Shown: positions 2,108-30,408 of the stretch, one piece after another
Numbering within the stretch: the stretch's first letter is position 1
Layout of the letters: the number at the start of each line of letters is the position of its first letter
NCBI RefSeq assembly: GCF_036365525.1
Contig: NC_090403.1
Span: 26,359,461-26,423,460 of the forward strand
Source of the DNA: Heterodontus francisci
Taxonomy: Eukaryota
Direction of reading: 5' to 3'
Length of the DNA stretch: 64,000 nucleotides
Translations under genes and position numbers: made by a program
The notes under the pieces: model-generated
Database searches by the model: none
Seen by the model: the letters and a program-made list of their open reading frames with translations, nothing else
What the model was told of the DNA's origin: nothing

Positions 2108-2504
2108 CTCGAATCCCTTCGAAAGTTTCATCAGGTTCAAGGGCTTGGTTTTCAGCGAGAGCCTCTGTTTTACACACTGTCGAGGAAAGGGACCGCCCTG
2201 AGAGGAGATAACAATCACTGTTACAATCAGCCCCAGAAACTGAAATACTACAGAATCACTGACTATTAATTAGCAAAATTATAAACTGCAAACTATTTCT
2301 CCTGATATGGCTTTTCACAACAAACAAACCCTGTGTGGTCCGGTTATGGTTCTGAATGTGTTTTAAACTCACCATTTCATTCAGTTTGCTCAGAGTCTCT
2401 GTGTTGAGAACTTGTTGTAACTGCAACCTCTCACAGCCCAGACTCAGGGTCCCGGGCAACAAGACCAACACCATCCAAAATCTCCAAACACTGGGGAAAG
2501 CCAT
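2108..2504 (-). CDS. IFN: Type I interferon, copy A (exons 1-2 only; the rest lies beyond the left window edge)
   Basis: Exon1 2504-2373 (MAFPSVWRFWMVLVLLPGTLSLGCERLQLQQVLNTETLSKLNEM, donor GTGAGT). Exon2 2197-2108 (acceptor ctctcag, GGPFPRQCVKQRLSLKTKPLNLMKLSKGFE, donor GTGAGT). Near-identical to exons 1-2 of complete copies B and C. Confidence 0.9.
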
Positions 2505-4258: not shown

Positions 4259-4788
4259 AAGAACAAAGAACAAAGAAAATTACAGCACAGGAACAGGCCC
4301 TTCGGCCCTCCAAGCCTACGCCGATCCAAATCCTCTCTCTAAACCTGTCGCCTATTTTCTAAGGGTCTGTATCTCTTTACTTCCTGCCCATTCATGTATC
4401 TGTCTAGATACATCTTAAAAGACGCTATCATGCCCGCGTCTACCACCTCCGCTGGCAAAGCGTTCCATGCACCCACCACCCTCTGCGTATAGAAATTTCC
4501 ACGCATATCCCCCCTAAACTTTTCCCCTTTCACTTTGAACTCGTGTCCCCTTGTAATTGAATACCCCACTCTGGGAAAAAGCTTCTTGCTATCCACTCTG
4601 TCTATACCTCTCATGATTTTGTACACCTCAATCAGGTCCCCCCTCAACCTCTGCCTTTCTAATGAAAATAATCCTAATCTGCTCAACCTCTCTTCATAGC
4701 TAGCGCCCTCCAAACCAGGCAACATCCTGGTGAATCTCCTCTGCACCCTCTCCAAAGCATCCACATCCTTTTGGTAATGTGGCGACCA
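4259..4788 (-). mobile_element. 5'-truncated young CR1 LINE, specific to the A-B spacer
   Basis: C-terminal ORF2 (QFWSPHYQKDVDALERVQRRFTRM...), (TTCTTTG)n tail, TSD AAATT (4254-4258 / 4789-4793). The empty site is visible at ~19260. Confidence 0.92.
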
Positions 4789-5155
4789 AAATTGGCATTT
4801 TAAAATATATAGGCCCATTTGTTAGTTATATTTGGGTGCAATAGTCATTTTCTTCGTAAAGTAAACTTGCCGAATCTTGTCCTTATTGCCCAAATGAAGC
4901 ACTTTAAGATTTGGATCCTCCGGAGAGGCCTGCAATTACAATGGTGATTAATTTATCCTGGCAATAAAGCCACTATTTTGGCACAAACTGCTTCCAGTGC
5001 AATTTTTTTTCTAAACTAGCGGTGAGAGTGGAAACTCAATTTGCCCTGGACGTAATTTGCAGGTAACAGCGGTCAATCTTTCACAGTTATTTCACTGACT
5101 TTGGGTGAGTTGCACTGAGCAAACCAGGACAAATAGTCATGTGGTAGTACAGAAC

Positions 5156-6297
5156 TTGAGAACTGCTAAAAATAGAGACATATTGTGGAAGCTTTTGTTC
5201 TTGCACTCATCAGGCCAACAGGCAAGAATAACCAATGTCAGGGGAAACAACAACTTATTCTGTATGAGAACAGAGTGCTGATTGGTTGGCAAGTGAAATC
5301 TGATTGGTAGAGGCTTTGACATGGAGCATGCACCAGTTTATGGTGACTGACAGTTAACTGTCAAGCTTTGTTTGAAATTTAAACCAGGCAGCTTGACTCT
5401 GGCTGGTCAAGGCATTTCTCTGAGGAATGAACCAGCAAATGGCTGAAACAGCGGCAATGTGTGTACATGTTCATTCTGTGTGCACCGAACAGAACCCTGC
5501 GTAATAAGATATGTAGCTTCCAGAACACACAAATGCGCCACACTGTGAGCCCGACTGACAATCTTCAGTTAGTTGTCAGTGTAATTCTTAGCACACTGCG
5601 GATTATTTAGCAAATGTTGTCCAATTGCAGAATCACATCTAATGTTGGACATTGTGTTCTGAGCTTTGCAACCTAGGGCTGGTTGGTTACGTCCTGTACG
5701 TTGCCTGCTGCAAACAGTGGAAGGGACAATTCACCAGTCTTTGGGATATGCAGCCTAAATACTTAGCATCACACTGGCATTGAAATTCATACATCACACA
5801 ACTCACTTGTGTGATAGGCAGGATGATGTTTGCCTTGACAGCAGCATCAGGTTAGTGGTGAACACCATGCGTGTTGCTACTGCATAGCGAACTTTACCTG
5901 TTGATCAATGTTTTGGGATACATTACCTCCAGGGTAATTTGAGGTAGACTGGGCATTTCTCAGGGCCACAAATAATGGCCTTACGCACGTTTCTATGTTT
6001 CCGTGATTTCCAGTGAGAAATGATCTGATCAGGGTCACCAATGTCACACAGGATTTCATTGATTCACCCTATTTCAGCATCAAGCTTGCATGGTGAGCAA
6101 ATGGCTCGGGCCCTATTTACGAGGTTGACCACAAAGTCAATCTTATAGCGCGTGGAACTGTAGGAATCCCAATACTTGTATTGAACAATGAAGTATAAGA
6201 TGTTGTTTTCCCTTACATTGGTTATTCCTGCGTGTTGTCCTGATGAGTGCAAAATGAAAAGCTTCGACAACATATCTCTATTTTAAGCAATTCTCAA
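5156..6297 (-). mobile_element. Penelope-like element remnant with ~105-bp inverted terminal repeats
   Basis: 5156-5260 is the reverse complement of 6193-6297. Internal remnants of the RT C-terminus (YWDSYSSTRYKI...LVNRARAICS) and GIY-YIG nuclease. Flanked by aaaccaggacaa / aaactaggacaa. Confidence 0.85.
6233..6272 (+). ncRNA. Minimal type I hammerhead ribozyme motif (Penelope-associated)
   Basis: TGTTGTC-CTGATGA-GTGCAAAAT-GAA-AAGCTT-C-GACAACA: perfect 7-bp stem I, intact core, weak stem II, palindromic AAGCTT stem III; predicted cleavage after C6265. Confidence 0.7.
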
Positions 6298-7815
6298 AAA
6301 CTAGGACAAGCGAGCGGAAAGTCCTCTTTGCTTTTTGTTAATTCTAAATTCCTATCCACCATTTATTTTGAGACTTGCATTATAAAATTGATGGTCTGAG
6401 TGCATAAAACAAGGCACTTCAGATGAAAAGAGGTAGAAATTATGATGTCACTTCGTGGGTGGGAGACAAAGGAATGAATAGAGGGTCGATGGAATGTTCG
6501 GGATGCAAAGCGGCAATAAACTGAACCATTTGGTCGCTGCGTAAAAGATAATGGGAGATTGACTAACAATTTAGGTGAAGCTGTTTGTCAGCATTTATCA
6601 TTGTAAATTGCTATGTTAGCATTTGAAATCCAATTTTGACATGGCAACTGCCAAACTGCCATGATATAATTGCAGCCTTTGGTCATAAGGTTGCTCTTTC
6701 CATATCTTTCTATTATTCGCTTGGAGAGAATAGTGCGAACTAATGGGAGGATTTGCAGGATGATTAACAGTCTGACAAATGGCGTCTTGAGCATTCCTTC
6801 CATGGCCATAAACATACCAATTGACAGATTGATCAGTCCAAGACAACAGGAGAGTATTATAGGCTCTCATAAACCATGCGGAGTATGGGGAATCCACTGG
6901 ATACATGTGCACACGTGGATGTCAACCCAGAATTCAGAACCAGAATTTGGACCCTCCATTGAGACACTCTGGGACATCCCATCCTCTGACCCGAGGCAGT
7001 AATCAAAATACTAAGCCAAAGGTTCACTCCAGGCCCTGGCGTGATCCTGTGGAATAAGTCTCTGAAGTTTTCCAACATGCATAGAAAAAATGTATATTGA
7101 TGAATTGACTGTGGACAAACCCAGGGGAAATGTATTCATAAGAAATGAGAGGATAGTCAGTGAAGGGCTGTGTGCACTTGTGGATGAATGAAGACTTGTG
7201 TTTGAACAAATGGTAGAAATATTGAGATGAATACACAAAAGCAAGGATGAAGTGCATATCAGTGGACCAAAGGGAAGGGAGGATAAAAACAAGTAAGTGT
7301 GAATGACAGTAGAAAATACACCAGGTCCAGATCATATGCAATCTAAGAAACTATGAAATAAGGTCAATGAGAGAAAGAACAAATCATAATTTTCCAATCA
7401 ACTTCAGAAACAAGTATTGTGCCAAAGGATTGCAGGGTGGCAAGATATTAGACTTAATTCAACTGTATGTAACTCTATGGAGTTCATAGTATGGGGTGAA
7501 ATAATTGAGAAGTCGGAGAAGCATGAGGGACAGTCAACACGAATCTGTAAATAATACTTGTGCTTGCAGAATACCGTTTAAGTTTTCAATAAGCTCACAT
7601 ACAAATCGACAGAAATGCAATCAGTGTTAAAGATATAGATTTTCAGAAGGTGTAAGACACTCCCACTTTTCACTCATTCTCACTCATCACACCCATTGAT
7701 TGATTTCCCCGTCTGTACTCTGTGTCAGATACTCCAGTCATCTCCTGCCGCCACCCATTCCTTTTCTCCGTCCATTTCCAATTGATGGCTTTATTTTGCC
7801 CTTTCCTGTTTAACA

Positions 7816-10716
7816 GGAACTGGTGGTCTGAGGTGTATTTGTTTTAATGCAAGAAGTGTAGTAGGTAAGGCAGATGAACTTAGGGCTTGGATTAGTACCT
7901 GGGAGTATGATGTTATTGCTATTACTGAGACTTGGTTAAGGGAAGGGCATGATTGGCAACTAAATATCCCAGGATACCGATGCTTCAGGCGGGATAGAGA
8001 GGGAGGTAAAAGGGGTGGAGGAGTTGCATTACTGGTCAAAGAGGATATCACAGCTGTGCTGAAGGAAGGCACTAAGGAGGACTCGAGCTATGAGGCAATA
8101 TGGGCAGAACTCAGAAATAGGAAGGGTGCGGTAACAATGTTGGGGCTGTACTATAGGCCTCCCAACAGCGAGCGTGAGATAGAGGTCCAAATATGTAAAC
8201 AGATTATGGAAAGCTGCAGGAGCAACAGGATGGTGGTGATAGGAGATTTTAGTTTTCCCAACATTGACTGGGATTCACTTAATGTTAGAGGTCTAGATGG
8301 AGCAGAATTTGTAAGGAGCATCCAGGAGGGTTTTCTAGAGCAGTATGTAAATAGTCCAACTCGGGAAGGGGCCATACTGGACCTGGTGTTGGGAAATGAG
8401 CCGGGCCAGGTGGTTGACGTTTCAGTAGGGGACTACTTTGGGAATAGTGATCACAATTCCGTAAGTTTTAGAATACTCATGGACAAAGACGAGAGTGGTC
8501 CTAAAGGAAGAGTGCTAAACTGGGGGAAGGCCAACTATACCAAAATTCGGCAGGAGCTGGGGAATGTAGATTGGGAGCAGCTGTTTGAAGGTAAATCCAC
8601 TTTTGATATGTGGGAGGCTTTTAAAGAGAGGTTGATTAGCGTGCAGGAGAGACATGTTTCTGTGAAAATGAGGGGTAGAAATGGCAAGATTAGGGAACCA
8701 TGGATGACAGGTGAAATTGTGAGACTAGCAAAGAGGAAAAAGGAAGCACACATAAGGTCTAGGCGGCTGAAGAAAGACGAAGCTTTGAAAGAATATCGGG
8801 ATTGTAGGACCAATCTGAAACGAGGAATTAAGAAGGCTAAAAGGGGTCATGAAATATCTTTCGCAAACAGGGTTAAGGAAAATCCCAAAGCCTTTTATTC
8901 ATATATAAGGAGCAAGAGGGTAACTAGAGAAAGAATTGGCCCACTCAAGGACAAAGGAGGAAAGTTATGCGTGGAGTCAGAGAAAACGGGTGAGATTCTA
9001 AACGAGTACCTTGCATCGGTATTCACTGAGGAGAGGGACATGACGGATGTTGAGGTTAGGGACAGATGTTTGATTACTCTAGGTCAAGTCGGCATAAGGA
9101 GGGAGGAAGTGTTGGGTATTCTAAAAGGCATTAAGCTGGACAAGTCCCCAGGTCCGGATGGGATCTATCCCAGGTTACTGTGGGAAGCGAGAGAGGAAAT
9201 AGTTGGGGCCTTAACAGATATCTTTGCAACCTCCTTAAACACGGGTGAGGTCCCGGAGGACTGGAGAATTTCTAATGTTGACCCCTTGCTTAAGAAGGGT
9301 AGCAGGGAAAGTCCAGGTAATTATAGACTGGTGAGCCTGACGTCAGTGGTAGGGAAGCTGCTGGAGAAGATACTGAGGGATAGGATCTATTCCCATCTGG
9401 AAGAAAATGGGCTTATCAGTGATAGGCAACATGGTTTTGTGCAGGGAAGGTCATGTCTTACCAACTTAATAGAATTCTTTGAGGAAGTGACAAAGTTGAT
9501 TGATGATGGAAGGGCTGTAGATGTCATATACATGGACTTCAGTAAGGCGTTTGATAAGGTTCCCCATGGTAGGCTGATGGAGAAAGTGAAGGCGCATGGG
9601 GTCCAAGGTGTACTAGCTAGATGGATAAAGAACTGGCTGGGCAACAGGAGACAGAGAGTAGCAGTGGAAGGGAGTTTCTCAAATTGGAGACGTGTGACCA
9701 GTGGTGTTCCACAGGGATCTGTGCTGGGACCACTGTTGTTTGTGATATACATAAATGATTTGGAGGAAAGTATAGGTGGTCTGATTAGCAAGTTTGCAGA
9801 CGACACTAAGATTGGTGGAGTAGCAGATACTGAAGGGGACTGTCAGAGAATACAGCAGAATATAGATAGATTGGAGAGTTGGGCATAGAAATGGCAGATG
9901 GAGTTCAATCAGGGCAAATGCGAGGTGTTGCATTTTGGAAGATCCAATTCAAGAGTGAACTATACAGTAAATGGAAAAGTCCTGGGGAAAATTGATGTAC
10001 AGAGAGATTTGGGTGTTCAGGTTCATTGTTCCCTGAAGGTGGCAACGCAGGTCAATAGAGTGGTCAAGAAGGCATACGGCATGCTTTCCTTCATCGGACG
10101 GGGTATTGAGTGCAAGAGTTGGCAGGTCATGTTACAGTTGTATAGGACTTTGGTTCGGCCACATTTGGAATACTGCGTGCAGTTCTGGTCGCCACATTAC
10201 CAAAAGGATGTGGATGCTTTGGAGAGGGTGCAGAGGAGGTTCACCAGGATGTTGCCTGGTATGGAGGGCGCTAGCTATGAAGAGAGGTTGAGTAGATTAG
10301 GATTATTTTCATTAGAAAGACGGAGGTTGAGGGGGGACCTGATTGAGGTGTACAAAATCATGAGAGGTATAGGCAGGGTGGATAGCAAGAAGCTTTTTCC
10401 CAGAGTGGGGGATTCAATTACAAGGGGACACGAGTTCAAAGTGAAAGGGGAAAAGTTTAGGGGGGATATCTGTGGAAACTTCTTTACGCAGAGGGTGGTG
10501 GGTGCATGGAACGCATTACCAGCGGAGGTGGTAGACGCGGGCACGATAGCGTCTTTTAAGATGTATCGAGACAGATACATGAATGGGCAGGAAGTAAAGA
10601 GATACAGACCCTTAGAAAATAGGCGACAGATTTAGATAGAGGATCTGGATCGGCGTATTCTTGGAGGGCCGAAGGGCCTGTTCCTGTGCTGTACTTCTCT
10701 TTGTTCTTTGTTCTTC
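7816..10716 (+). mobile_element. Young CR1 LINE with almost complete ORF2 (APE endonuclease + RT), specific to the A-B spacer
   Basis: Frame runs from CFNARS...ITETWL through KFADD to RRQI with one in-frame TAG at 9886-9888; (TTCTTTG)n tail; TSD TAACA 7811-7815 / 10717-10721; empty site at ~22190. Confidence 0.97.
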
Positions 10717-11575: not shown

Positions 11576-14500
11576 TCAGTTTCTTCTTCTGATTTTTGCT
11601 GTTATAACAAGGATCTGTTGTAAACAGGCTCTGGTCTCAGTGCGGATTATTTCCCAGGCACAGTCACTGAATATCTGAAGGAAGGAAATATTCGGGAAAA
11701 TCCATTAGAGAATCAATAGATTTAAATGGGGTGAAATGAACTCCATGCTAGTAATTACACAGAAAATACCAATTGTCCCACCTTCTGTTTGAGAAACTTT
11801 TCCAGTTTCCTGAAGTATTTGTGAATGGCAGTCTTGCTCCTGGGCTTGGACTCTGATCTCAATTTCCAGACACATTCTTCCAGCTCTCCGAGTTGCCGAT
11901 CGAGGAGAAGACGAAAGTTTTCCACCTTGTCTCGGGGCCATGTAACTGAGCCCAGGTTCATGCTGTAGATCTTGTTGATGTGACGCAGGGTTTGATGGAC
12001 AATCTGGATGCTGTCCTGGGCCTGTGCACAACAGACACAATGACATTAGAGGGGGTCTTATACCTTTTCGGTTTAAAGTAGTTATGGAAAGGAACAAGGA
12101 ATAGGTCAACAGTAAATAAGCAACGGGAGGCTTTAATAGTGAAGACATCTTGGGTACAGACTGGGTTCATTCCTATGAAGCAGTAAGTAAGGACATGCAA
12201 AAATTCGAGCTCCGTGGATAGAGAGCTTAAATAGATAGTGAAAAGGAAGGCTTCTCATAAATATTAGGCTCATAATAACGTGGGGAACGAAGCTGAATAT
12301 AGACAGTACAGAGGAGAACTATCAAAGAAATGAGGGGCAGAGTGCATAAAAAATGGACTAGCTGCAAACAAAAAAGGGAAGCTACAAATCTTTTACAAGC
12401 ATGTAAAGGGAAAGAAGGGTTAGTAATTAGTGGCCGGAAAAGCAATTTTCTTCTGGAGCAGGGGGTACAGCTGAGGATCTAAATGATTAATTTGCACGTG
12501 TCTTCACTAAATAGGATGGTTCGAATATCACAGTAAAGATGGGTGTTTGGCAGAGGTGGAGGTAGAAGAAAAATTGGATAGGGTGAAAATAGATACAGAG
12601 GAGGTAGTTAAAAGATTGATAGCACTCTAAGTAGGAAAGTCACCCGGTCTGGATAGAATATGTCTCAGGTTGCTGAGGAAAGTAAGTGCTGAAATAATGG
12701 AAGTTCTGGCCACAATTTTCCAGTCCTCCTCAGATGTGAGAGTGATGCCAAAGGACTGGAAGTTTTCTTCCTGTTCAAAAAAGAAAGAGGGTAAACTTGA
12801 CAACCACAGGCCTGTTCGCCCTTCATGGGTGGCGGGAAGTTTGTCGACACTATTTTTCCAAGGTAAAAGGAATTGTCACTTACCAAAATATGACTTAGTA
12901 AATGTCAACCAGTAAAAATTTGTTAAGGTAAAATCATGTTGCCTAACTTGATTGAGTTATTCGATCAAGTAGCAGAAAGGATTGCTGAGGGAGGTGTGGT
13001 GATTGTTGTGTATGTAGATCTTCAAAATATCTGTATACGGTTTTGCTGAATTGATGGTGAAAAAATTCAATAATAGGTTTGAAAGGGAAATTGAGTAAAT
13101 AGTTGAAGAGGAAAGGTTTGCATGGCTATGGGAAATAGTGAGGGGAGTGGGAATAATTGGATAATTCATTCAAAGAGCCTGCACAAGCATGATGAGCCAC
13201 ATGGCCTCTTCTGTACCATTCAATGATTCTATGACGTAACCTGCCCTGATGGTGCAAACCACACAGCCAATCACTGTAGCTCAGGAGTGAGATGGTTAGA
13301 GGGAGGCAGATTGTTACATTGTGTAAGATGAATGGGTGAGTTTAAATAATTAGAGGAACTGAGATGATGAGAAGCAAAGTAATTTGACAAGATTCATGGT
13401 TAACATAGATGGAGGTTGTGAAATGGTTAAAAGAATGATTAGGGGACACTGGCGTACTGATAATGTTACTTGAATACTAATTCAGACGCCAGGAAAAAGC
13501 TCTGGGAACATGAGTCCAAATCCCACCAGAGTGGCTGGTGGAAATTAAATTTAATTATTAAATCTGCGGTTAAAAGCGAGTCTCATTTATGGTTACCATG
13601 AAACTATTGGATTGTCAATAAAAACACATCTATTTCATCATTGCCAAATCTACTGTCCTTACCTGGTCTGGCCTACATGTGACTCCAGACCTGACTCTGA
13701 AAGGGCCTAGCAAGCCATTCAGTTGTATCAAACCACTGTAGAAAAGTTGAATAAGAATAAAACTTGACAGATTGACCACAGCACCAGAAATGACAATGTC
13801 AGACTCTGACCAGTCAACCCTACAAAATCCTCCTTACTATTTATCTGGGGACCTGTGCCAAAATAAAGAGAACTGTCCCACAGACTGCACAAGTTTGCCT
13901 GGCAGATTCATACTCACTGAATCATACCATACAGCTATTGTCCCAGACTACTCCGTCATCATCGCAATGGGACAAGATATACCCACCAGAAGTAGTTGCA
14001 CAGTATTAAACAGTGGGGAGGGAGTGTGCTCAACATTGACTCCAGACCCCATGAATTCTTACACCATCAGGCCAAACATGGGCAAGGAAATCACCTGCTG
14101 ATTACCACCTAAAACCTCCCTCAGACGATCAAACTTGCTCTGCCACACAATAAGATCATGGCTGATCCGATTGTGACATTAACTCCACTTTCCTCCCTTA
14201 ACCAGCACCACCCCCATATCTCTTGTCTCCCCAGTAGATCAAAAATCTGTCTAACTCAGCCTTGAATATGTTCGGTGAATCAACCACCACTGCTCTCTGG
14301 GGAAGAGAATTCCAAATATTAAAGACCCTCTGAGAGAAGAAAGACCTCCTCGTTTCCATCTTAAAAAGAGACTCCTTATTTTACAATTGTGCCCCCTTGT
14401 CTATCTCATGAAGAAAAACATCCTGTCAGCATCTACGCTGTCAAGCCCCCTCAGAATATTATATGTTTCAATGAGATCACCTCTCATTCTTCTAATCTCC

Positions 14501-17500
14501 AATGAGTATAGCCCCAACCTCATCAACCTTTCCTCATAAGACAACCCTTTCATCCTAGGAATCAGCCCAGAGAGCTTTTGCTGAACTGCTTCCAATGCAT
14601 GTATATCCCTCAGATGATGAATCAGTACTCCTTCATGTTTGACACCACTTTGAGGAAGCAGTGTGGGTCGTAATGGCACTGAATGTACTCTTGGTGGAGA
14701 ACCTCAATGCCCATCACCAAGAGTGGCTCAGTAGCAGCACTACTGACCGAGCTGGTCCAGTCCTGATAGATGTAACATCCAGACTGGGCCTGCAGCAAGT
14801 GGTGATGATCCAGGAAAAAGGAAATTTGCCTGACATCGCCCTCACCAAGCGACCTGTTGCAGATGCATCTGTCCATGACAGTATTGGGAGGAGTGAGTAC
14901 CACATAGTCCTTATGGAGATGATGTCCTATCTTCACTCTGAGGATACTGTCCATTGTGTGCAATGGCACTACCACGGTGCTAAATGGGATACATTCAGGA
15001 CAGATCTAGCAGCTGAAAACTGGGCATCCATGAGGCACTGTGAGCCATCAGCAGCAGCAGAATTGTATTCAATCACACTCTGTAACTGCATGGCCTGGCA
15101 TATCCCTCACTCGACCATCACCATCAAGCCAGAGGATCAGACCTGGTTCAATGAGGAGTTTAAGAGAGCAAGCCAGGAGCAGCACCAGGGATATCTAAAA
15201 ATGAGATATCAACCTGGTGAAGCTACCACACAGGACAACATGCATGTTAAACAGCAGAAGCAGCATGCCATAGAGCTAAGAGATCCCACACCAATGGATC
15301 AGATCAAAGCTCTGCAGCCCTGCCACATCCAGTTGTGTATGGTGGTGGACAATTAAACAACTGACAGGAGGAAAAGGCTCCACAAACATCCCCAGTGTCA
15401 ATGCTGAGGGAGCCCAGAACATTAGTGCAAAAGACAAGGCTAAAGTATTTGCATCCATCTTGGCCTCCTCGTGAGGTCCCCAGCATCATAGATGCAAATC
15501 TTCAACCAATTCAATTCACTCCACGTGATATCAAGAAATGGCTGAAGGGACAGGATACAGCAAAGGCTATAGGGCCTGACAACATCCTGGCAGTAGAATT
15601 GAAGACTTGTTCTCCAGAATAAGCTGCACCCTTAGCCAAGCTTTTCCAGTACAGCTATAACATTGCGATCTACCAACAAAGCAGAAAATTGCCCAGGTGT
15701 GTCATGTGCACAAAAGACAGTTCAAATCCGATCTGGCCAATTTCCATCCCATCAGTCTGCTCTCGATCATCAGCAAAGTGCTGGAGGGTGTGGTCAACAG
15801 TTCTATCAAGTGGCACTTACACAGCAATAACCTGTTCACTGATGCACAGTTTGGGTTCCAACAGGGCTATCCAGCTCCAGGCCTCATAATAGCCTTTGTC
15901 CAGACATGGACAAAAGGGCTGAATTCAAGTGGTAAGATGAGAGTGACTGACTTGACATCAAGGCAGCATTTGACTGAGTGTGGAATCAAAGAGCCCTAGC
16001 AAAATTGAAGTCAATGTGAATCAGGGGGTAAACTCTTCATTGATTGGAGTCATACCTAGAACAAATGAAGATGATTGTGGTTGTTGACAGCCAAACATCT
16101 AAGCCCCAGGACATCGCTGCAGGAGTTTCACAGGTTAATGTCCCAGACCTAACCATCTTCAGCCGCTTCATCAATGACCTTCCCACCATCAGAAGCTCAG
16201 AAGTGGGAATGTTCACTGATGACGTTATTCAGTACCAACCGTGACTCCTCAGGTACTCAAGCAGTTCATCTCCACCTGCAGCAAGAGCTGAACAACATTC
16301 AGGCTTCGGCTGATAAGTGACAAGTAACATTCATGACCACAAGTGCCAAGCAATGACCATCTCCAACAAGAGAGAATCTAACCATCTCCACTTGATATTC
16401 AACAACATTACCATCACTGAATATCCCACTATCAACATCCTGAGGGTTATCATTGACCAGAAACTTAACAGGACCAGTCATATAAATACTGTGGCAACAA
16501 GAGCAGCTCAGAGGCTGGTAATTCTGCGGGAGTAATTCACCTCCTGACTCCCCAATGCCAGTCCACCACCTACAAGGCACAAGTCAGGAATGTGATGGAA
16601 TACTCTCCACTTGCCTGGATGAGTGCAGCTCCAACAACACTCAAGATGCTCGACACCATCCAGGACAAAGCAGCCCAATTGATTGACACCTGATCCAACA
16701 CCTTCAACATTCTCTCCCTCCACCAGCATTGCAGTGTGTAACTTGTACAAGATGCACTGCAGCAAATCACCAAGAATTCTTCGACAGCACTTTCCAAAGC
16801 TGCAACCTCTACCACAGCAGCTGCTTGGCAACACTATCACCTGCGTGTTCCCCTCCAAGCTACAAACCATCCTGACTTGGGAGTATATCGCCGTTCCTCC
16901 ACTGTTAGAATTAAGGAGAAAGTAAGTGCTGTCATTGTGAGTGATATAGTTAGTGAGTGAATGACTGAGTAGTTCTGCTGTCCTTCTCACACCAATGGGC
17001 GGAAAACACTGGATTTAAATTTCCTGGTGTTGAAATTTCGGATCAGGTTGATGATCTTACTCATACTCTCAATAAAACTCCAGTTCGAATAAAATAAACC
17101 CAGTGTTCACTCACCTCGAATCCCTTCGAAAGTTTCATCAGGTTCAAGGGCTTAGTTTTCAGCGAGAGCCTCTGTTTTACACAGTGTCGAGGAAAGGGAC
17201 CGCCCTGAGAGGAGATAACAATCACTGTTACAATCAGCCCCAGAAACTGAAATACTACAGAATCACTGACTATTAATTAGCAAAATTATAAACTGCAAAC
17301 TATTTCTCCAAATATGGCTTTTCACAACAAACAAACCCTGTGTGGTCCGGTTATGGTTCTGAATGTGTTTTAAACTCACCATTTCATTCAGTTTGCTCAG
17401 AGTCTCTGTGTTGAGAACTTGTTGTAACTGCAACCTCTCACAGCCCAGACTCAGGGTCCCGGGCAACAAGACCAACACCATCCAAAATCTCCAAACACTG

Positions 17501-17511
17501 GGCAAAGCCAT
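11576..17511 (-). CDS. IFN: Type I interferon, copy B; 4 coding exons, 186 aa
   Basis: Exons 17511-17380 (44 aa, hydrophobic signal peptide ending SLG|C), 17204-17115 (30 aa), 12021-11782 (80 aa, AQDSIQIVHQTLRHINKIYSMNLGSVTWPRDKVENFRLLLDRQLGELEEC...YFRKLEKFLKQK) and 11674-11576 (IFSDCAWEIIRTETRACLQQILVITAKIRRRN*). All introns are GT-AG and phase 0. The CAWE motif and YF..L..FL helix are type I IFN hallmarks. Confidence 0.95.
12170..13230 (+). mobile_element. Old degraded CR1 fragments in intron 2 of copy B
   Basis: Remnants resembling CR1 ORF2 (LRKVSAEIMEVLATIFQSS..PKDWK) and a CR1-like 3' end; duplicated at ~23650-24710. Confidence 0.65.
13640..16905 (+). mobile_element. Decayed CR1/L2-group LINE in intron 2 of copy B, with nested minus-strand CR1 3' fragment (~14135-14610)
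   Basis: EN/RT fragments (LNAHHQEWL, PISLLSIISKVLE, FINDLP, MFTDD). The nested piece encodes GLSYEERL..LGLYSLE.RRMRGDLIETY. Confidence 0.85.
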
Positions 17512-18552: not shown

Positions 18553-19627
18553 ATTACAAAGGGAATGTCACAAAATCAATCTCAGCTGAAACTGTGATCA
18601 AAATCTTCCGTCCGGGTGGATGTGGGACTGAGATCCCACGAGCACCAGCTTTAGACGGGAGAAAAACTGCAATTTAGAATAATGTTGATGGTAACAGGAT
18701 AATGGTGAATAAAACTGTAGGAATTGTAAATAGTTTCGAATGGAGGCGGAAGGAGGGTTAGGGAATTTAAGGAGGAATGTTTAAAACACTGGTGTGTAAC
18801 ATAAAAGGAAGTAGCAAGGACTCTTAGCAGCACGTCCATTATAACCTTACTCTGTACCTTTATCATTCTGCATAATTGGACTTCCTAATGTCAACATCTT
18901 GTCACCCCATTGGGGTAGAGATTCCGCTTTGTCGGAATTCATGGGGAGAGCAAATAGATGGGTTTATCCCCACTTTTCCCTTGGCGCACCGAACGGAATT
19001 TGCACGTTTTGAGATTTTGTTCTCGAATTTCCGCTCAAATTCGTTTGCCAATCACCAAACGCAAAATCTGCCATGAGCCAACAAATCGGTCAGGGATTTC
19101 AAATATATTTTTAATAAAACTGCCTTAAAATGTTCGATTAGATATTTAAGAGTGGAAACAGATGCAGTTTGATTCATACAGCAAAAAATAGGTTTATCAC
19201 AAAAAGTAAGCATTTTAAATGACACTATCAATCCTGCACCTGTGAGATTTTAAATGACTGAAATTGACATTTTAAAATATATAGGCCCATTTGTTAGTTA
19301 TATTTGGGTGCAATAGTCATTTTCTTACTAAAGTAAACTTGCCGATTCTTGTCCTTATTGCCCAAATGAAACACTTGACATTTTGGATCCTCCGGAGAGG
19401 CCTGCAATTACAATGGTGATTAATTCATCCTGGCAATTAAGCCACTATTTTGGCACAACCAGCTTCTAATGCAATCTTTTTTGTGAACTAGCGTCGAGAG
19501 TGGAAAGTCACTTTGCCCTGGACGTAATTTATAGGTAACAGGAGGCAATCTTTCACACTTATTTCACTGACTTTGGGTGAGTTGCACTGAGCAAACCAGA
19601 ACAAATAGTCATGTGGTAGTACAGAAC

Positions 19628-20691
19628 TTGAGAAGTGCTCAAAATAGAGATATGTTGTGGAAGCTCTTGGTCTTGCTCTCATCAGGACAACAGGCAAGAA
19701 TAACCAATGTAAGGGAAAACAACATCTTATTCTGTATGAGAACAGAGTGCTGATTGGTTGGCAAGTGAATTCTGATTGGTAGAGGCTTTGCCATGGAGCA
19801 TGCATCAGTTTATGGTGACTGACAGTTAACTGTCAAGCGTTGTTTGAAATTTAAACCAGGCAACTTGAACAGAGCCCTGTATATTAAGCCATGTAGCTTC
19901 CAGTAAACACAAATGCGCCACACTGTGAGCCCAACTGACAATCTTCAATTAGTTGTCAGTGTAATTCTTAGCACACTGCGGATTATTTAGCATATGTTGT
20001 CCAATTGCAGAATCACATCTAATGTTGGACACTGTGTTCTGAGCTTTGCAACCTAGGGCTGGTTGGTTACGTCCTGTGCGTTGCCTGTTGCAAACAGTGG
20101 AAGGGACATTTTGTTTGATACAATTCACCAGTCTTTGGGATGTACAGCCAAAATACTTAGCATCACACTGGCATTGAAATTCATACATCACACAACTCAC
20201 TTGTGTGATAGGCAGGATGATGTTTGCCTTGACAGCAGCATCAGGTTAGTGGTGAACACCATGCGTGTTGCTACTGCATAGCAAACTTTACCTGTTGATC
20301 AATGTTTTGGGATACATTACCTCCAGGGTAATTTGAGGTAGACTGGGCATTTCTCAGGGCCACAAATGATGGCCTTACGCACGTTTCTATGTTTCCGTGA
20401 TTTCCAGTGAGAAATGATCTGATCAGGGTCACCAATGTCACACAGGATTTCATTGATTCACCCTATTTCAGCATCAAGCTTGCATGGTGAGCAAATGGCT
20501 CGGGCCCTATTTACGAGGTTGACCACAAAGTCAATCTTATAGCGCGTGGAACTGTAGGAATCCCAATACTTGTATTGAACAATGAAGTATAAGATGTTGT
20601 TTTCCCTTACATTGGTTATTCCTGCGTGTTGTCCTGATGAGTGCAAAATGAAAAGCTTCGACAACATATCTCTATTTTAAGCAATTCTCAA
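19628..20691 (-). mobile_element. Penelope-like element remnant with inverted terminal repeats (second copy)
   Basis: ORF 20200-19949 reads VMYEFQCQCDAKYFGCTSQRLVNCIKQ (GIY-YIG-like); same inverted repeats as 5156-6297. Confidence 0.85.
20627..20666 (+). ncRNA. Minimal type I hammerhead ribozyme motif (second copy)
   Basis: Identical to 6233-6272. Confidence 0.7.
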
Positions 20692-22462
20692 AAACTAGGA
20701 CAAGCGAGCGGAAAGTCCTCTTTGCTTTTTGTTAATTCTAAATTCCTATCCACCATTTATTATGAGACTTGCATTATAACATTGATGGTCTGAGTGCATA
20801 AAGGAAGGCACTTCAGATGAAAAGAGGTAGAAATTATGATGTCACTTCGTGGGTGGGAGATAGAGGAATAAATAGAGCGTCTGTGGAATGTTCGGGATGC
20901 AAAGCGGCAATAAACTGAGCCATTTGGTCGCTGCATAAAAGATAATGGGAGATTGACTAACAATTTAGGTGAAGTTTGTCAGCATTTATCATTGTAAATT
21001 GTTATGTCAGCATTTGAAATCCAATTTTGACATGGCAACTGCCAAACTGCCATGATATAATTGCAGCCTTTGGTCATAAGGTTGCTCTTTCCATATCTTC
21101 AAATTATTCCCTTGGAGAGAATAGTGCGAACTAATGGGAGGATTTGCAGGATGATTAACAGTCTGACAAATGGCGTCTTGAGCATTCCTTCCATGGCCAT
21201 AAACATACCAATTGACAGATTGATCAGTCCAAGACAACAGGAGAGTATTATAGGCTCCCAAAAACCATGCGGAGTATGGGGAATCCACTGGATATATATG
21301 TCCACGTGAATGTCAACCCAGAATTTGGATCTTCCATTGAGACACTCTGGGATATCCCATTCTCTGACCCGAGGCAGTAATCATAATACTAAGCCAAAGG
21401 TTCACTCCAGGCCCTGGCCTGATCCTGTGGAATAAGTCTCTGAAGTTTTCCAACATGCATAGAAAAAATGTATATTGATTAATTGACTGTGGACAAAGCC
21501 AGGGGAAATGTATTAATAAGAACTAAAAGGACAGTCAGTGAAGGGCTGTGTGCGCTTGTGGATGAATGAAGACTTGTGTTTGAACAAATGGTAGAAATAT
21601 TTTGATGAATGCACAAAAGCAAGGATGAAGTGCATATCAGTGGACCAAAGGGACGGGAGGATAAAAACAAGTAAGTGTGAATGACAGTAGAAAATACACC
21701 TGGTCCAGATCATATGCAATCTAAGAAACTATGAAATAAGGTCAATGAGAGAAAGAACAAATCATAATTTTCCAATCAACTTCAGAAACAAGTATTGTGC
21801 CAAAGGATTGCAGGGTGGCAAGATATTAGACTTAATTCAGCTGTATGTAACTCTGTGGAGTCCATAGTATGGGGTGAAATAATTGAGAAGTCGGAGAAGC
21901 ATGAGGGACAGTCAACACGAATCTGTAAATAATACTTGTGCTTGCAGAATACCGTTTAAGTTTTCAATAAGCTCACATACAAATCGATAGAAATGCAATC
22001 AGTGTTAAAGATATTGATTTTCAGAAGGTGTAAGACACTCCCACTTTTCACTCATTCTCACTCATCACACCCATTGACTGATTTCCCCGTCTGTACTCTG
22101 TGTCAGATACTCCAGTCATCTCCTGCCGCCACCCACTCCTTTTCTCTATCTGTCCATTTCCAACTGATGGCTTTATTTTGCCCTTTCCTGTTTAGCATCT
22201 CAGGCTTAATCCTCTCTCATTTGGAGTGCGGATATGAAGTTGAGAAACGAGTGGAAAATCAGGTAAATTGGGTTTGAAATGGATTGACAGCTTTGAGCAG
22301 TGAGGGAAAATCAGACAGCAGAGAGAGGAGACTTGAGCAGAGATTGTATCAGTAACAGACAGCAAGGAGGAAAATCCAGAGCATTTATAGTGAGTATGGA
22401 AAACTGATCAACACAAATGAGAAATAGATATTATTCTTGTAAATGTGAATTTTTGAAAACAA

Positions 22463-23051: not shown

Positions 23052-25660
23052 TCAGTTTCTTCTTCTGATTTTTGCTGTTATAACAAGGATCTGTTGTAAA
23101 CAGGCTCTGGTCTCAATGCGGATTATTTCCCAGGCACAGTCACTGAATATCTGAAGGAAGGAAATATTCGGGAAAATCCATTAGAGAATCAATAGATTTA
23201 AATGGGGTGAAATGAACTACATGCTAGTAATTACACAGAAAATACCAATTGTCCCACCTTCTGTTTGAGAAACTTTTCCAGTTTCCTGAAGTATTTGTGA
23301 ATGGCAGTCTTGCTCCTGGGCTTGGACTCTGATCTCAATTTCCAGACACATTCTTCCATCTCTCCGAGTTGCCGATCGAGGAGAAGACGAAAGTTTTCCA
23401 CCTTGTCTCGGGGCCATGTGACTGAGCCCAGGTTCATGCTGTAGATCTTGTTGATGTGTCGCAGGGTTTGATGGACAATCTGGATCCTGTCCTGGGCCTG
23501 TGCACAATAGACACAATAACATTAGAGGGGGTCTCATACCTTTCAGGTTTAAAGTAGTTATGGAAAGGAACAAGGAATAGGTCAACAGTAAATAAGCAAC
23601 GGGAGGCTTTAATAGTGAAGACATCTTGGATACAGACTGGTCTCATTCCTATGAAGCAGAAAGTAAGGACATGCAAAAATTCGCGCTCCGTGGATAGAGA
23701 GCTTAAATAGATAGTGAAAAGGAAGGCTTCTCATAAATATTAGGCTCATAATAACGTGGGGAACGAAGCTGAATATAGACAGTACAGAGGAGAACTATCA
23801 AAAAAATGAGGGGCAGAGTGCAGAGAAAATAGACTAGCTGCAAACATAAAAGGGAAGCTACAAATCTTTTATAAGCATGTAAAGGGAAAGAAGGGTTAGT
23901 AATTAGTGGCCGGAAAAGCAATTTTCTTCTGGAGCAGGGGGTACAGCTGAGGATCTAAATGATTAATTTGCACGTGTCTTCACTAAATAGGATGGTTCAA
24001 ATATCACAGTAAAGATGGGTGTTTGGCAGAGGTGGAGGTAGAAGAAAAATTGGATAGGGTGAAAATAGATACAGAGGAGGTAGTTAAAAGATTGATAGCA
24101 CTCTAAGTAGGAAAGTCATCCGGTCTGGATAGAATATGTCACAGGTTGCTGAGGAAAGTAAGTGCTGAAATAATGGAAGTTCTGGCCACAATTTTCCAGT
24201 CCTCCTTAGATGTGAGAGTGATGCCAAAGGACTGGAAGTTTTCTCCCTGTTCAAAAAAGAAAGAGGGTAAACTTGACAACCACAGGCCAGTTCGCCTATC
24301 ATGGGTGGCGGGAAGCTTGTAGACACTATTTTTCCAAGGTAAATTGAATTGTCACTTACCAAAATATGACTTAGTAAATGTCAACCAGTAAAAATTTGTT
24401 AAGGTAAAATCATGTTGCCTAACTTGATTGAGTTATTCGATCAAGTAGCAGAAAGGATTGCTGAGGGAGGTGTGGTGATTGTTGTGTATATAGATCTTCA
24501 AAATATCTGTATACGGATTTGCTGAATGGATGGTGAAAAAATTCAATAATAGGTTTGAAAGGGAAATTAAATAAATCGTTGAAGAGGAAAGATTTTCATG
24601 GCTATGGGAAATTGGGAGGGGAGTGGGAATAATTAGATAATTCATTCAAAGAGCCTGCACAAGCATGATGAGCCACATGGCCTCTTCTGTACCTTTCAAG
24701 GATTCTATGACTTAACCTGCCCTGATGGTGCAAACCACACAACCAATCACTGCAGCACAGGAGTGAGATGGTTAGAGGGAGGCAGATTGTTACATTGTGT
24801 AAGATGAATGGGTGAGTTTAGATAATTAGAGGAAGTGAGATGATGAGAAGCATGGTAATTTGACAAGATTCATGGTTAACATAGATGGAGGGTGTGAAAT
24901 GATTAAAAGAATGATTAGGGGACACTGGCGTACTGATAATGTTACTTGAATACTAATTCAGACGCCAGGAAAAAGCTCTGGGAACATGAGTCCAAATCCC
25001 ACCAGAGTGGCTGGTGGAAATTAAATTTAATTATTAAATCTGCTGTTAAAGGCTAATCTCATTTATGGTTACCATGAAACTAATGGATTGTCAATAAAAA
25101 CACATCTATTTCATGAATAAAAACAAGAAATGCTGGAACCAATCAACAGGTCTGGCAGCATCTTCAGACCCTTCTTCAGAACTTCGGTTCTCCAGGTTGA
25201 TGATCTTACTCATACTCTCAATAAAACTCCAGTTTGAATAAAATAAACCCAGTGTTCACTCACCTCGAATCCCTTCGAAAGTTTCATCAGGTTCAAGGGC
25301 TTGGTTTTCAGCGAGAGTCTCTGTTTTACACAGTGTCGAGGAAAGGGACCGCCCTGAGAGGAGATAACAATCACTGTTGCAATCAGCCCCAGAAACTGAA
25401 ATACGACAGAATCACTGACTATTAATTAGCAAAATTACAAACTGCAAACTATTTCTCCTGATATGGCTTTTCACAACAAACAAACCCTGTGTGGTCCGGT
25501 TATGGTTCTGAATGTGTTTTAAACTCACCATTTCATTCAGTTTGCTCAGAGTCTCTGTGTTGAGAACTTCTTGTAACTGCAACCTCTCACAGCCCAGACT
25601 CAGGGTCCCGGGCAACAAGACGAATACCATCCAAAATCTCCAAACACTGGGCAAAGCCAT
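23052..25660 (-). CDS. IFN: Type I interferon, copy C; 4 coding exons, 186 aa
   Basis: Exons 25660-25529, 25353-25264, 23497-23258 and 23150-23052; GT-AG phase-0 introns; intact frame with CAWE motif. Differs from copy B at L13F, Q31E, S78R, L121M and T166I. Confidence 0.95.
23650..24710 (+). mobile_element. Old degraded CR1 fragments in intron 2 of copy C
   Basis: Paralog of 12170-13230. Confidence 0.65.
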
Positions 25661-25747
25661 CCAAACCGACCCAGAGTAAAACACTGATCTGAAGGATGAG
25701 TAACCGACGGCTTCGTGGTTCAGCGCCCAAAACGCTTCTTGTTCACT

Positions 25748-26702
25748 GATTTAAACTCTGAACGTGGAATTGCAGCCGATTCTGATCCAGGAGCGACCGT
25801 CTGTGTTGCTGAATGGTGTGAGAGTGCGGCTGGATTCTGTTGGGAACTCTCACTGGCACTGCCATGCTGTCGGATTTAATGTGTGGCATTACATTCGAAA
25901 AGTGAAAATATTCTGCAGGATTTTTGGAGTTTGTGCTATTTCTTTCTGATGTAAGGAATCGAAAAGCTGGAGACTCCAGAGCCAGCGACTGGAAAATCCC
26001 CGGTAGAAAAACATTGAACCAGCTCTCGATTCCAGTTCAACGTTGTGTGGGTTCGGATCACCGGGGCATGAAGGGAGAGTCTGTATTGGGGGGAGTGTGA
26101 ACATGTATTGGGGGCTGTATTTTATAATCCGGGTTTAGAGAGACACTGACAGCGGTAATCCGGTGCCGCGGCTTTTAATGCTGACATTCGGCTCCAGAAA
26201 GAGCGATTCCCTTTTAAATCCACTCTCTCCCCGGTGTGCTCACATCGCGCTTTTCCTGTTCACACTTCGCAGGTTGGACATTGCAGAGATCCCGGGTCAC
26301 AGCCCAGGATCACCGCTTGATGCCGAATGTCTCCGCTCGGATTCACCTGTCGGAGAATCTGCTCTTTAAGTGGAAGAAGTTTGTCATTTCTGGACTCTTT
26401 TCTGCGGTCATTTTCAGAGTTTGTTTGAAAGAAAATTTAATCTGCTTCGACTCTGAGTCCCAAAGTAAATCGCTCCCTTTTCTTTCATCGTTTATTTCTT
26501 GTCTCCCCCCCGGGAAAGTGTCCGTGTCAGTTTCTCTATGGAAATGAACCTTGTGTCAATTACATCGAAAGTGAAAGTGTCTCAGGGAAAGTGACGAGTT
26601 TTGTCATTTCCGAAAGGGAGGAGAGTTTGTAAACAGAGCGGGTCACACTGAGAGGGCTGAGGGGGAGCTGCAACAGGGTTTGGGATATCCGGGATATCCC
26701 CG
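25748..26702 (-). promoter_or_regulatory. Upstream regulatory region of IFN copy C
   Basis: kB site 25991-26001; GAAAGTGAAAGTG 26567-26579; tandem GGGATATCC(CC) 26682-26701. Confidence 0.7.
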
Positions 26703-27159
26703 ATTACAAAGGGAATGTCACAAAATCAATCTCATCTGAAACTGTGATCAAAAACTTCCGCCCGGGTGGATGTGGGACTGAGATCCCACGAGCACCAGCT
26801 TTAGCCGGGAGAAAAACTGCAATTTAGAATAATGCTGATGGTAACAGGATAATGGTGAATAAAACTGTAGGAATTGTAAATAGTTTCGAATGGAGGCGGA
26901 AGGAGGGTTAGGGAATTTAAGGAGGAATGTTTAAAACACTGGTGGGTAACATAAAAGGAAGTAGCAAGGACTCTTAGCAGCACGGCCATTATAATCTTAC
27001 TCTGTACCTTTATCATTCTGCATAATTGGACAACATCTTGTCACCCCATTGGGGTAGAGATTCCGCTTTGTTGGAATTCATGGGGAGGGCAAATGGTTCA
27101 TCGAATTTTCGCCACTTTGTACCCCCACCTTCCCCGCCCAAAATTGCATCTGTATTAAT

Positions 27160-27300
27160 AACATAAGAACATACGAAATAGGAGCAGGAGTAGGCCATTC
27201 AGCCCCTCAAGCTTGCCCTGCCATTCAGTAAGATCATGGCTGCTCTGTCCCAGGCCTCGACTCCTTTTTCGTGCCTGCTCCGCCAAATCCTTGACTCCCG
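27160..27300 (-). mobile_element. CR1 3'-tail fragment
   Basis: acataagaacata..aaataggagcaggagtaggccattcagccc, a typical reverse-oriented CR1 3' end. Confidence 0.7.
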
Positions 27301-27449
27301 AAAGTTTTGGAAAGTTTTTGTTGCGTTTCTGCTCAAACTCATTTGCCAGTCACCAAACGCAAAATCTGCCATGAACCAGCATTGTCATTTTTAAAAATTG
27401 CTTTAAATATTCTTTTATACATTTTATACACTGATGCAGTTTTTTAAAA

Positions 27450-28220
27450 TTCATTCATGGGATGTGGGCCTTGCTGGCCAGGCCAGCATTTATTGCCCAT
27501 CCCTAATTGCCCTTGAGAAGGTGGTGGTGAGCTGCCTTCTTGAACCACTGCAGTCCATGTGGGGTGGGTACATCCACAGTGCTGTTAGGAAGGGAATTCC
27601 AGGATTTTGACCTAACGACAGTGAAGGAACGGCGATATAGTTCCAAGTCAGGATGGTGTGTGACTTGGAGGGGAACTTGCAGTAGGTGGTGTTCTCATGC
27701 ATCTGCTGCCCTTGTCCTTCTAGTTGGTAGAGGTCGCAGGTTTGGAAGGTGCTGTCTAAGGAGCCTTGGTGCATTGCTGCAGTGCATCTTATAGATGGTA
27801 CACACTGCTGTCACTGTGCGTCGGTGGTGGAGGGAGTGAATGTTTGCGGATGGGATGCCAATCAAGTGGGCTGCTTTGTCCTGGATGGTGTCAAGCTTCT
27901 TGAGTGTTGTTGGAGCTGCACCCATCCAGGCAAGTGGAGAGCATTCCATCACACTCCTGACTTGTGCCTTGTAGATGGTGGACAGACTTTGAGGAGTCAG
28001 GAGATGAGTTACTTGCTGCAGGATTCCTAGCCTCTGACCTGCTCTTGTAGCCACAGTATTTATATGGCTACTCCAGTTCAGTTTCTGGTCGATGGTAACC
28101 CCTAGGATGTTGATAGTGGGGGATTCAACGATGGGAATGCCATTGAATATCAAGGGGAGATGGTTAGATTCTCTCTTTTTTGAGATGGTCATTGCCTGGC
28201 ACTTGTGTGGCATGAATGTT
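27450..28220 (-). mobile_element. CR1/L2-group LINE 3' fragment
   Basis: ORF 28213-27695 (KCQAMTIS...ILGVTIDQKLNW...IYKAQVRSVME); same family as the intronic LINEs. Confidence 0.88.
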
Positions 28221-28544
28221 ACCGTTTGATTAATACAGCAGAAAATGGGTTATCACAAAAAGTGAGTAACCCGCTTTTAAATTACTGAAAATGTATTTAA
28301 AAATATACTGGCCCATTTGCTAGTTATGTTAAGGTACAATCGTCATTTTCTTGGTAAATTAAGAAGTGATACTGCAAACCTTCTAACTTATGCCTGTTAG
28401 TGCCCTTGTACCCAAAAGACCAGTTTAGTTTTTGGAGCCTCCTCAAAAGTCTGCAAACAATCACAATGATGATTCATTCATCATGGAGATGAGGCCAGTT
28501 TTGCGGGTGGGGCCAGCTTCAATTTTTTTTTAAGGATTCCATTC

Positions 28545-28905
28545 ATATGGCGTTGTTATGACCACAGTATGTCTCAACATGCTTTACAGCCAGTGAACAA
28601 CTTTTGAAGTGTAGTCGCTGTTGTAATGTAGGGAACATGGTGGCCAATTTGCACACAGCAAACTCCCACAAATGGCAATGTGATAATGACCAGATAATCT
28701 GTTTTTGTAATGTTGATTGTGGGATAATTATTGGCCAGGACGCTGGAGATAACCCACCTTCTATCCTTCCAAATAATGCAATGGAATCTTTTATGTCAAC
28801 CTGACAGGGCAGGTTCACATCTCATCTGAAAAATGGCAACTCTAACATTCCCTCAGTGAGGCTCAAATCCTGACTCAGAGGCACCAGCTGAACCACTGCT
28901 GACAA
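28545..28905 (-). mobile_element. DeuSINE (SacSINE1/AmnSINE-like)
   Basis: Reverse complement contains TTTGTGGGAGTTTGCTGTGTGCAAATTGGC...CCTACATTACAACAGCGACTACACTTCAAAAG...TGGCTGTAAAGC, recognised from memory as the DeuSINE 3' part. Confidence 0.7.
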
Positions 28906-29087
28906 AACTAGCACAAAAGAGAGTGGAAACTTGATTTGAACTGCATGTAATTGGCACTTAACATTTTGCAATCTTTTGTGCTGATTTCACTGATTTTGGG
29001 CAGATTGCACTGAAAAACCAGCACAACTAAGCAGAGTTTCATGTTTGCCTTTTGGCAATTATACATTTCTTTGCTGACATTTATTAT

Positions 29088-29296
29088 TACATAGAAACAT
29101 AGAAAATAGGAGCAGGAGTAGGCCATGCGGCCCTTCAAGCCTGCTCCGCCATTCAAAAAAGATCATTGCTGCTCGTCTAATTCAGTACTCTGTTCCTGCT
29201 TTCTCCCCATATCCCTTGATCCCTTTGGCATTAAGAAATAAATCTATCACCTTCTTGAATGTATTTAATGACTTGGCCTCCAATGCCTTCTTGCAG
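29088..29296 (-). mobile_element. CR1 3'-tail fragment
   Basis: catagaaacatagaaaataggagcaggagtaggcc... tail microsatellite. Confidence 0.7.
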
Positions 29297-30062: not shown

Positions 30063-30408
30063 GGCGGGAATAATGCATTGTTAGCACCGCAGCTTCACAG
30101 CTCCAGTGACCCGGGTTCAATTCTGGGTACTGCCTGTGTGGAGTTTGCAAGTTCTCCCTGTGTCTGCGTGGGTTTCCTCCGGATGCTCCGGTTTCCTCCC
30201 ACATGCCAAAGACTTGCTGGTTGATAGGTTAATTGGCCATTATAAATTGCCCCTAGTATAGGTAGGTGGTAGGGAAATATAGGGACAGGTGGGGATGTGG
30301 TAGGAATATGGAATTAGTATAGGATTAGTATAAATGGGTGGTTGATGGTCGGCACAGACTTGGTGGGCCGAAGGGCCTGTTTCAGTGCTGTATCTCTAAA
30401 AAAAAAAA
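30063..30408 (+). mobile_element. HE1-type V-SINE (tRNA-derived)
   Basis: B box GGGTTCAATTC ~30113; V-domain TGTGTGGAGTTTGCAAGTTCTCCCTGTGTCTGCGTGGGTTTCCTCCGGATGCTCCGGTTTCCTCCCAC; CR1-like tail GGGCCGAAGGGCCTGTTTC; A-rich end. Confidence 0.88.

Follow-up and report, generated by a model that had tools for sequence, protein, structure and literature searches.

The cassette that lies upstream of two type I interferon genes is very probably a dead-on-arrival insertion of an endonuclease-positive (EN+) Penelope-like element (PLE), which was passively copied in a recent duplication of an interferon unit, and the activity of its plus-strand hammerhead motif is probably weak or absent, with no role for the host. 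In the window, by which we mean the whole stretch of 64,000 nucleotides that was analysed, one can directly see a single insertion with a 12-bp target-site duplication (TSD), a one-sided tail, a truncated open reading frame (ORF), an inverted copy of the 3' end and an empty site. All structural features of the cassette match described EN+ PLE insertions, and its origin is ordinary. As read here, it is one more decayed PLE copy of small consequence, and it is also a clean worked example, as TSD, tail, inversion junction and empty paralogous site are found within one window. The cassette agrees with a model in which PLE insertion uses two start sites, and it gives an order of events in the interferon array, with an older duplication followed by the PLE insertion and then by the recent duplication.

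Anatomy of the insertion

A single old insertion of a 5'-truncated EN+ PLE on the minus strand makes up the cassette, which is present in units 1 and 2 of the duplication. The inverted repeats of about 105 bp that the initial annotation had described in both spacers are confirmed, coordinates included, as arms of 106 bp, and the Penelope origin had been recognised correctly, given the RT-thumb/GIY-YIG remnant and the pLTR end with its hammerhead. The start of the cassette had been placed at 5156 and 19628 and has to be moved outwards: the element begins at 5133 and 19605, with the tail outside the arm, and the true PLE span in unit 1 is 5133-6297. The features are as follows.

5121-5132, no strand: left TSD of unit 1, identical to 6298-6309 at 11/12 positions
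5133-5155, minus strand: PLE tail, 23 bp, one-sided, the element's 3'-most end, between TSD and arm and the same in both units
5156-5261, minus strand: left arm of unit 1, the element's own 3' end (pLTR end), in the PLE sense direction behind the ORF stop and the 3' UTR
5181-5220, minus strand: decayed minimal hammerhead of unit 1, with C at G12 and G1.1 and A at 11.1
5262-5442, minus strand: 3' UTR/pLTR body; 90 bp of 5397-5486 are missing in unit 2
5443-6192, minus strand: broken PLE ORF remnant of unit 1, RT end (thumb) and GIY-YIG, with stops and frameshifts, cut at 6192
5975-6367, no strand: 393-bp tract identical in units 1 and 2, covering dead ORF, arm and outside flank
6192-6297, plus strand: inverted 106-bp copy of the element's 3' end in unit 1, joined at the 5' truncation point, without tail
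6233-6272, plus strand: minimal type I hammerhead motif of unit 1, with intact core, G10.1·U11.1 and palindromic AAGCUU; predicted cut at 6265/6266
6298-6309, no strand: right TSD of unit 1, 12 bp just right of the arm
19593-19604, no strand: left TSD of unit 2, identical to 20692-20703 at 10/12 positions
19605-19627, minus strand: PLE tail of unit 2, 23 bp, the same as in unit 1
19628-19733, minus strand: left arm of unit 2, with a decayed hammerhead at 19653-19692 that keeps C11.1
19835-20586, minus strand: broken PLE ORF remnant of unit 2, with the same homology as that of unit 1
20586-20691, plus strand: inverted arm of unit 2, with the hammerhead motif at 20627-20666
20692-20703, no strand: right TSD of unit 2, partner of 19593-19604
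29015-29026, no strand: empty site in the spacer upstream of gene C, a single 12-mer TSD copy where left- and right-flank alignments meet

In a random control of the TSDs with 20,000 draws, 18 matches reached the 11/12 of unit 1 and 83 the 10/12 of unit 2. The tail is found at one end only, with 23 bp on the left between TSD and arm and none on the right, and six contigs of run X16, which come from other loci, fit down to 5131. Copies of the arm occur only four times in the whole window, as two inverted pairs 14.4 kb apart; within unit 1 the arms (5156-5261 against 6192-6297) differ at 15/106 positions, and within unit 2 (19628-19733 against 20586-20691) at 11/106. The hammerhead of the minus arm is sense to the PLE ORF and follows the ORF stop on that strand. 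The homology to the PLE ORF breaks off precisely at 6192, the arm junction, which identifies the left arm as the 3' end proper of the element and the right arm as its inverted copy.

Units 1 and 2 share the same insertion site, which bears out the earlier proposal that the cassette was duplicated together with the interferon genes. Upstream of gene C, the third interferon gene, the left flank (5089-5135) aligns to 28984-29029 and the right flank (6298-6367) to 29015-29085, and no PLE similarity was found in 27100-33000. From this empty site it follows that the PLE inserted once and was duplicated passively, and since the site lies in an older paralogous spacer, the insertion falls between the older duplication and the recent one. 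A different short repeat (29085-29290), which is like 27158-27245 and LINE 3' ends, has inserted at a distance of about 60 bp from the empty site.

For EN+ PLEs of the Penelope/Poseidon type, which carry a C-terminal GIY-YIG, excerpts of PMC8557442 describe a tail at one end and an adjacent inverted truncated copy. The present insertion is alike in its 5' truncation, in the inverted truncated copy at its 5' end, in the one-ended tail, in the pLTR hammerhead and in the order of RT and then GIY-YIG. It differs in a tail of 23 bp instead of 30-40 bp and in having no upstream tandem pLTR, and the likeness is a structural one, the remnant being without RT core. In PAc, the Poseidon element of Anolis carolinensis, two RT start sites bound the tail, both strands are extended and the ORF start lies inside the hammerhead, according to excerpts of PMC11167929. 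The cassette resembles PAc in the hammerhead over the ORF start, the tail-separated ends and the AT-rich target, whereas its ends are 55 and 78 nt downstream of the ATG (RT of PAc starts 111-118 nt in) and this PLE copy is dead.

On this basis, the endonuclease would have made staggered nicks 12 nt apart. The first nick would have primed RT from the distal start, which includes the tail, via hammerhead, 3' UTR and GIY-YIG into the RT thumb, and the second would have primed from a start 23 nt further in and run for 106 nt, which would place the two start sites 78 and 55 nt after the core ATG. The two cDNAs would then have been joined at 6192. Both hammerheads would represent the element's own motif, each decaying neutrally from then on. 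A segmental duplication followed by patchy homogenisation between the duplicates, presumably by gene conversion, would explain why one arm is identical between the units and the other is not.

The coding remnant and its family

With a 98-aa open frame from unit 2 as query, 527 relatives were obtained at E <= 0.001. Ten of these were scanned with Pfam, which detected RVT_1 in two (one above the cut-off, P0135 with 30.8 bits) and GIY-YIG in five, all under the curated cut-off. The relatives P0135, P0046 and P0012, which bear RT and GIY-YIG, match in tblastn with E values of 1e-19 to 1e-37. The alignments of the longest relatives start on the minus strand precisely at 6192 (20586 in unit 2) and end at 5443-5449, and the remnant is colinear with the C-terminal 255-264 aa of P0135 and P0046. 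Pfam gave no match for the remnant alone, a word-based search among longer proteins yielded five candidates and none at E 0.001, and no obvious Zn-finger could be seen by eye in the translated linker.

The family was surveyed in four of 23 listed runs, with contigs that show at least 80% likeness to the cassette region. There were 7154 such contigs in X1 (organism A, which may be the source of the window itself), 495 in organism B, 30727 in organism C and 1196 in X16, which comes from the sample of X1. The PLE family is a dispersed repeat in these three organisms, and its edges match those of the cassette. In X1, the depth is 15-74 in the flank bins against about 1,400-77,000 inside the cassette, a depth not to be equated with copy number. 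In X16, a putative RNA run, the family contigs likewise lie inside the cassette and leave the flanks uncovered, and these contigs have no bearing on expression at the locus.

The survey also shows where the window departs from the family. At position 6253 in loop II of the plus motif, G accounts for 66,817/67,478 of the X1 depth (about 99%) and the window has A; at 6228, T accounts for 13,326/13,422 (about 99%) and the window has C. The minus arms keep the family base at both positions. As the family bases differ from the window here, the changes are private to the plus arm. Among the 40 of 252 family differences that were listed, to which 6255 does not belong, 16 fall in 5959-6137, and 13 of these are inside the identical tract, in its dead-ORF part. 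In organism B, a contig of depth 3.8 with 13 other letters spans the left junction (5085-5220), which hints weakly that the insertion is older than the split from that organism.

The hammerhead motifs

At 6233-6272 and 20627-20666 the plus strand has the same 40-mer, and all 11 positions of the core CUGAUGA/GAAA/UC survive. The description of an intact motif shared by both units thus holds for the core and for the identity; it does not hold throughout, as position 11.1 is U and 6253 is off the family base. Stem I, which had been called perfect, has seven Watson-Crick pairs and a terminal eighth pair that is G·U. Stem II consists of G·U and U-A only, and the stem III region is the palindrome AAGCUU, with a predicted energy of -4.3 kcal/mol for the 6-bp self-duplex. 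With this palindrome and a stem II of 2 bp, the motif was rightly assigned to the minimal type I hammerheads of the dimer-requiring kind.

The minus motifs (5181-5220 and 19653-19692) have lost G12 and differ from each other, as had been seen before; both carry C at G12 and also at G1.1, and the differences amount to 5/40 motif positions and 11/106 arm positions. Only the minus arm of unit 2 has G-C at the pair 10.1/11.1; the plus arms have G·U there and the minus arm of unit 1 has G·A. About two changes per arm predate the duplication, namely G12 and G1.1 in the minus arm and loop II and 11.1 in the plus arm, and the probability that two random changes spare all 11 core positions is 0.52. The core ATG (6243, 5210 and 19682) is likely the ORF start of the PLE family; its frame is open through arm and tail in the minus arm of unit 2. 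U11.1 (6255), which corresponds to C in that arm, has a CpG context, and it introduces a stop into the core-ATG frame. By parsimony and given the stop codon, U11.1 is probably derived. Excerpts of PMC4209133 call G10.1-C11.1 highly conserved in PLE hammerheads, and we read the missing pair as decay of this PLE copy. The papers searched gave no value for how G10.1·U11.1 affects the cleavage rate.

A search with a hammerhead type I model, as suggested in the initial annotation, does not recover the motif: Rfam Hammerhead_1 (RF00163) gave 12.8 bits with E 3.4 on 201 bases, under the gathering score of 34 bits, and a whole-window Rfam scan returned no hammerhead at E 1. Chance controls still indicate that the motif is non-random, with 0 motifs having a stem I of at least 7 bp in 60 third-order Markov simulations of the window. 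The core pattern had 15 metagenome matches, which were all set aside as chance (stem I of 1-3 bp in 15/15, no similarity to the cassette), and 0 matches in viral contigs. Rfam matches to snoRNAs and miRNAs in the window were dismissed as chance as well, and so was an imperfect purine/pyrimidine-rich hairpin at 41455-41550, which matched mir-14 with 30 bits, far under the cut-off of 53.

PLE hammerhead variants reportedly cleave as dimers, a finding ascribed to Lünse et al. In excerpts of PMC4209133, the minimal PLE motif has no activity as a monomer and low activity as a dimer, and in those of PMC11167929, the PAc hammerhead needed the protein of its element for cleavage, and RNA-seq ends at the cut site were not seen. 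Equilibrium modelling, as distinct from kinetics, puts the probability of stem I at 0.85 for the arm alone, at 0.01-0.02 once upstream sequence is included and at 0 for the complete cassette; the G10.1·U11.1 pair reaches 0.018 in the isolated arm and 0.001 in a longer context, and the arm-arm duplex has -126/-146 kcal/mol against -8.5 for the motif. According to this modelling, the plus motif would fold poorly in its context, and it is probably weak or inactive, with no host role.

Compared with the metazoan PLE minimal hammerheads in excerpts of PMC4209133, the motif is alike in type I topology, intact core, palindromic 15.2-16.2/loop 3 and dispersed copies, and the same source reported in 2014 that minimal hammerheads from truncated PLEs occur as close pairs on opposite strands. 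It differs in a stem II of 2 bp and a stem I of 7-8 bp (7-8 and 4-5 in the Schistosoma motifs), in having no extra nucleotide between 9 and 10.1, and in the plus arm, where their G10.1-C11.1 is G·U. Non-LTR retrozymes, reported from one chondrichthyan in excerpts of bioRxiv 10.64898/2026.07.22.740005, share the intergenic location and a type I hammerhead of PLE pLTR origin; they differ from the cassette, in which there are no head-to-tail tandem units and opposite-strand motifs flank a coding remnant.

The interferon array and possible co-option

The genes next to the cassette are type I interferons (Pfam PF00143, E 5e-12 with the exon-3 frame), and it is present at two of the window's three interferon genes.

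2108-2504, minus strand: interferon gene A, exons 1-2 (2504-2373, 2197-2108), remainder left of the window
11576-17511, minus strand: interferon gene B, four exons (17511-17380, 17204-17115, 12021-11782, 11674-11576)
23052-25660, minus strand: interferon gene C, four exons (25660-25529, 25353-25264, 23497-23258, 23150-23052), no cassette upstream

The ATGs of genes A, B and C are at 2504, 17511 and 25660. As these genes are on the minus strand, the plus motif is indeed antisense to them, as had been pointed out, and it lies 3.7 kb (gene A) and 3.1 kb (gene B) upstream of the ATGs. Genes B and C each have four coding exons of 132, 90, 240 and 99 bp, and four exons are the layout given for cartilaginous-fish interferons in excerpts of PMC5332411. 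The tandem duplication that produced units 1 and 2 covers about 10.1 kb with 2.9% divergence (about 97% identical). The coding region of gene C and 1.4 kb upstream of it have 96-97% identity to A and B, and past 27118 its spacer is only about 70-85% alike, in pieces. This drop in identity (25193-32300) marks either an older duplication or a conversion boundary. Intron 2 measures 5.1 kb in gene B and 1.8 kb in gene C, because of LINE-like remnants common to genes A and B (13639-15008 and equivalents).

The asymmetry between the arms is best judged against this background. Inside the identical tract, the plus arm (0/106) stands beside the dead ORF (0/217) and the outside flank (0/70), and the minus arm has 11/106 differences against 29/361 in its adjoining flank, two copies being compared. 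In this comparison the arms are not conserved beyond the neighbouring neutral DNA, the outcome that the initial annotation had named as speaking against its functional proposal, and the asymmetry is regional and not confined to the motif. Of the 40-column segments of the duplication, 41% are free of differences, as are 13% of the 106-column segments. Divergence between the units is over-dispersed (2.5 vs 0.97 in 2000 permutations); the identical runs that rank second and third in length (275 and 254 bp) lie in the intron rich in LINE remnants. The 393-bp tract is the longest identical run in the 10.1 kb, with P 0.002 under uniform divergence, which counts against the passive reading. A three-way comparison of the promoter regions (62 variable sites) gave mixed patterns and no clear conversion tracts.

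We think it improbable that the inverted arm was co-opted at the interferon locus, be it as a protein-assisted or trans-dimer ribozyme or as IRF-type DNA, with the 393-bp tract as a mark of selection or favoured conversion. If true, a transposon ribozyme would have been domesticated to tune antiviral genes; among the titles and abstract openings searched, no report of such PLE/hammerhead co-option at interferon genes was found.

The ribozyme form of this idea, in which the plus-arm hammerhead, acting as a trans dimer or aided by a protein, would cut divergent or antisense RNA at the promoters of the interferon genes, goes back in part to the initial annotation, and we rate it as very improbable. 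It could draw on a core, palindrome and stem I that are intact and identical in both units, on the position inside the longest identical tract, on an orientation that suits a divergent transcript, on the AAGCUU self-duplex and on the protein-assisted cleavage of a PLE hammerhead in excerpts of PMC11167929. However, the identity reaches over dead ORF and flank, and G10.1·U11.1, with a pair probability of at most 0.018, replaces a pair that excerpts of PMC4209133 call highly conserved; the same source has even family-type minimal motifs inactive as monomers and low in activity as dimers. A divergent transcript from an interferon promoter would also pass the left arm first and is predicted to lock the motif in the arm-arm duplex, the closest sense partner lies at a distance of 14.4 kb and is reached only through gene B in antisense, and gene C is without cassette. 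Given the decayed pair, the arm pairing and the example of gene C, exaptation appears unsupported as far as the sequence comparison goes.

Still less credence is given to the plus arm acting as DNA, with the two private changes having turned GAAA into an IRF-type site (6251-6259 and 20645-20653) and thereby into a distal interferon element. The AAANTGAAA match depends on both plus-arm-specific bases (6253 and 6255) and is on the same strand as matches upstream of all three interferon genes (2742, 3410, 17749, 18418, 25899 and 26568), and AAANTGAAA occurs 17 times in the window vs 7.8 expected. This excess is, however, inflated by the duplications, and AANNGAAA, the IRF-3/7 consensus in excerpts of PMC3167601, is at background (70 vs 66 expected). 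Moreover, the site is a single half-site that fails GAAANNGAAA, and it is missing from the gene C spacer.

Just as unlikely is a 1.1-kb non-autonomous element with terminal inverted repeats that is mobile as a unit. Inverted repeats and a TSD are present, but both copies have one insertion site and TSD, so that they stem from segmental duplication; the tail lies outside one repeat, four X16 contigs run at 6192 into 3'-UTR-like sequence and not into the ORF, and the depth along the cassette is very uneven. Least likely of all is a read-through RNA whose two arms pair as a double-stranded stem of 106 bp and so supply a substrate for RNA sensing or editing beside the interferon genes: 86-96 of the 106 arm positions are paired in the minimum-energy fold of either strand, but the arms are diverging (11-15 mismatches), which speaks against selection for pairing, and fold-back copies belong to the ordinary products of PLE insertion in excerpts of PMC8557442. 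The passively copied, dead insertion is the reading that we prefer.

Apart from the cassette, GAAANNGAAA has a match in intron 1 of all three interferon genes (2236-2245, 17243-17252 and 25392-25401) and a second one about 900 bp upstream of each interferon ATG (3409, 18417 and 26567). Broken frames at 56300-59000, 60900-62100 and 37000-38000 are presumably remnants of LTR retrotransposons, and Pfam gave no match for the frames 56335-56748 and 37086-37580. Unit 1 alone contains a 2.9-kb LINE at 7816-10715 with long endonuclease-RT frames, of which an inverted 536-bp 3' fragment with 95% identity is found at 4259-4794 and a 78% relative at 50790-53675.
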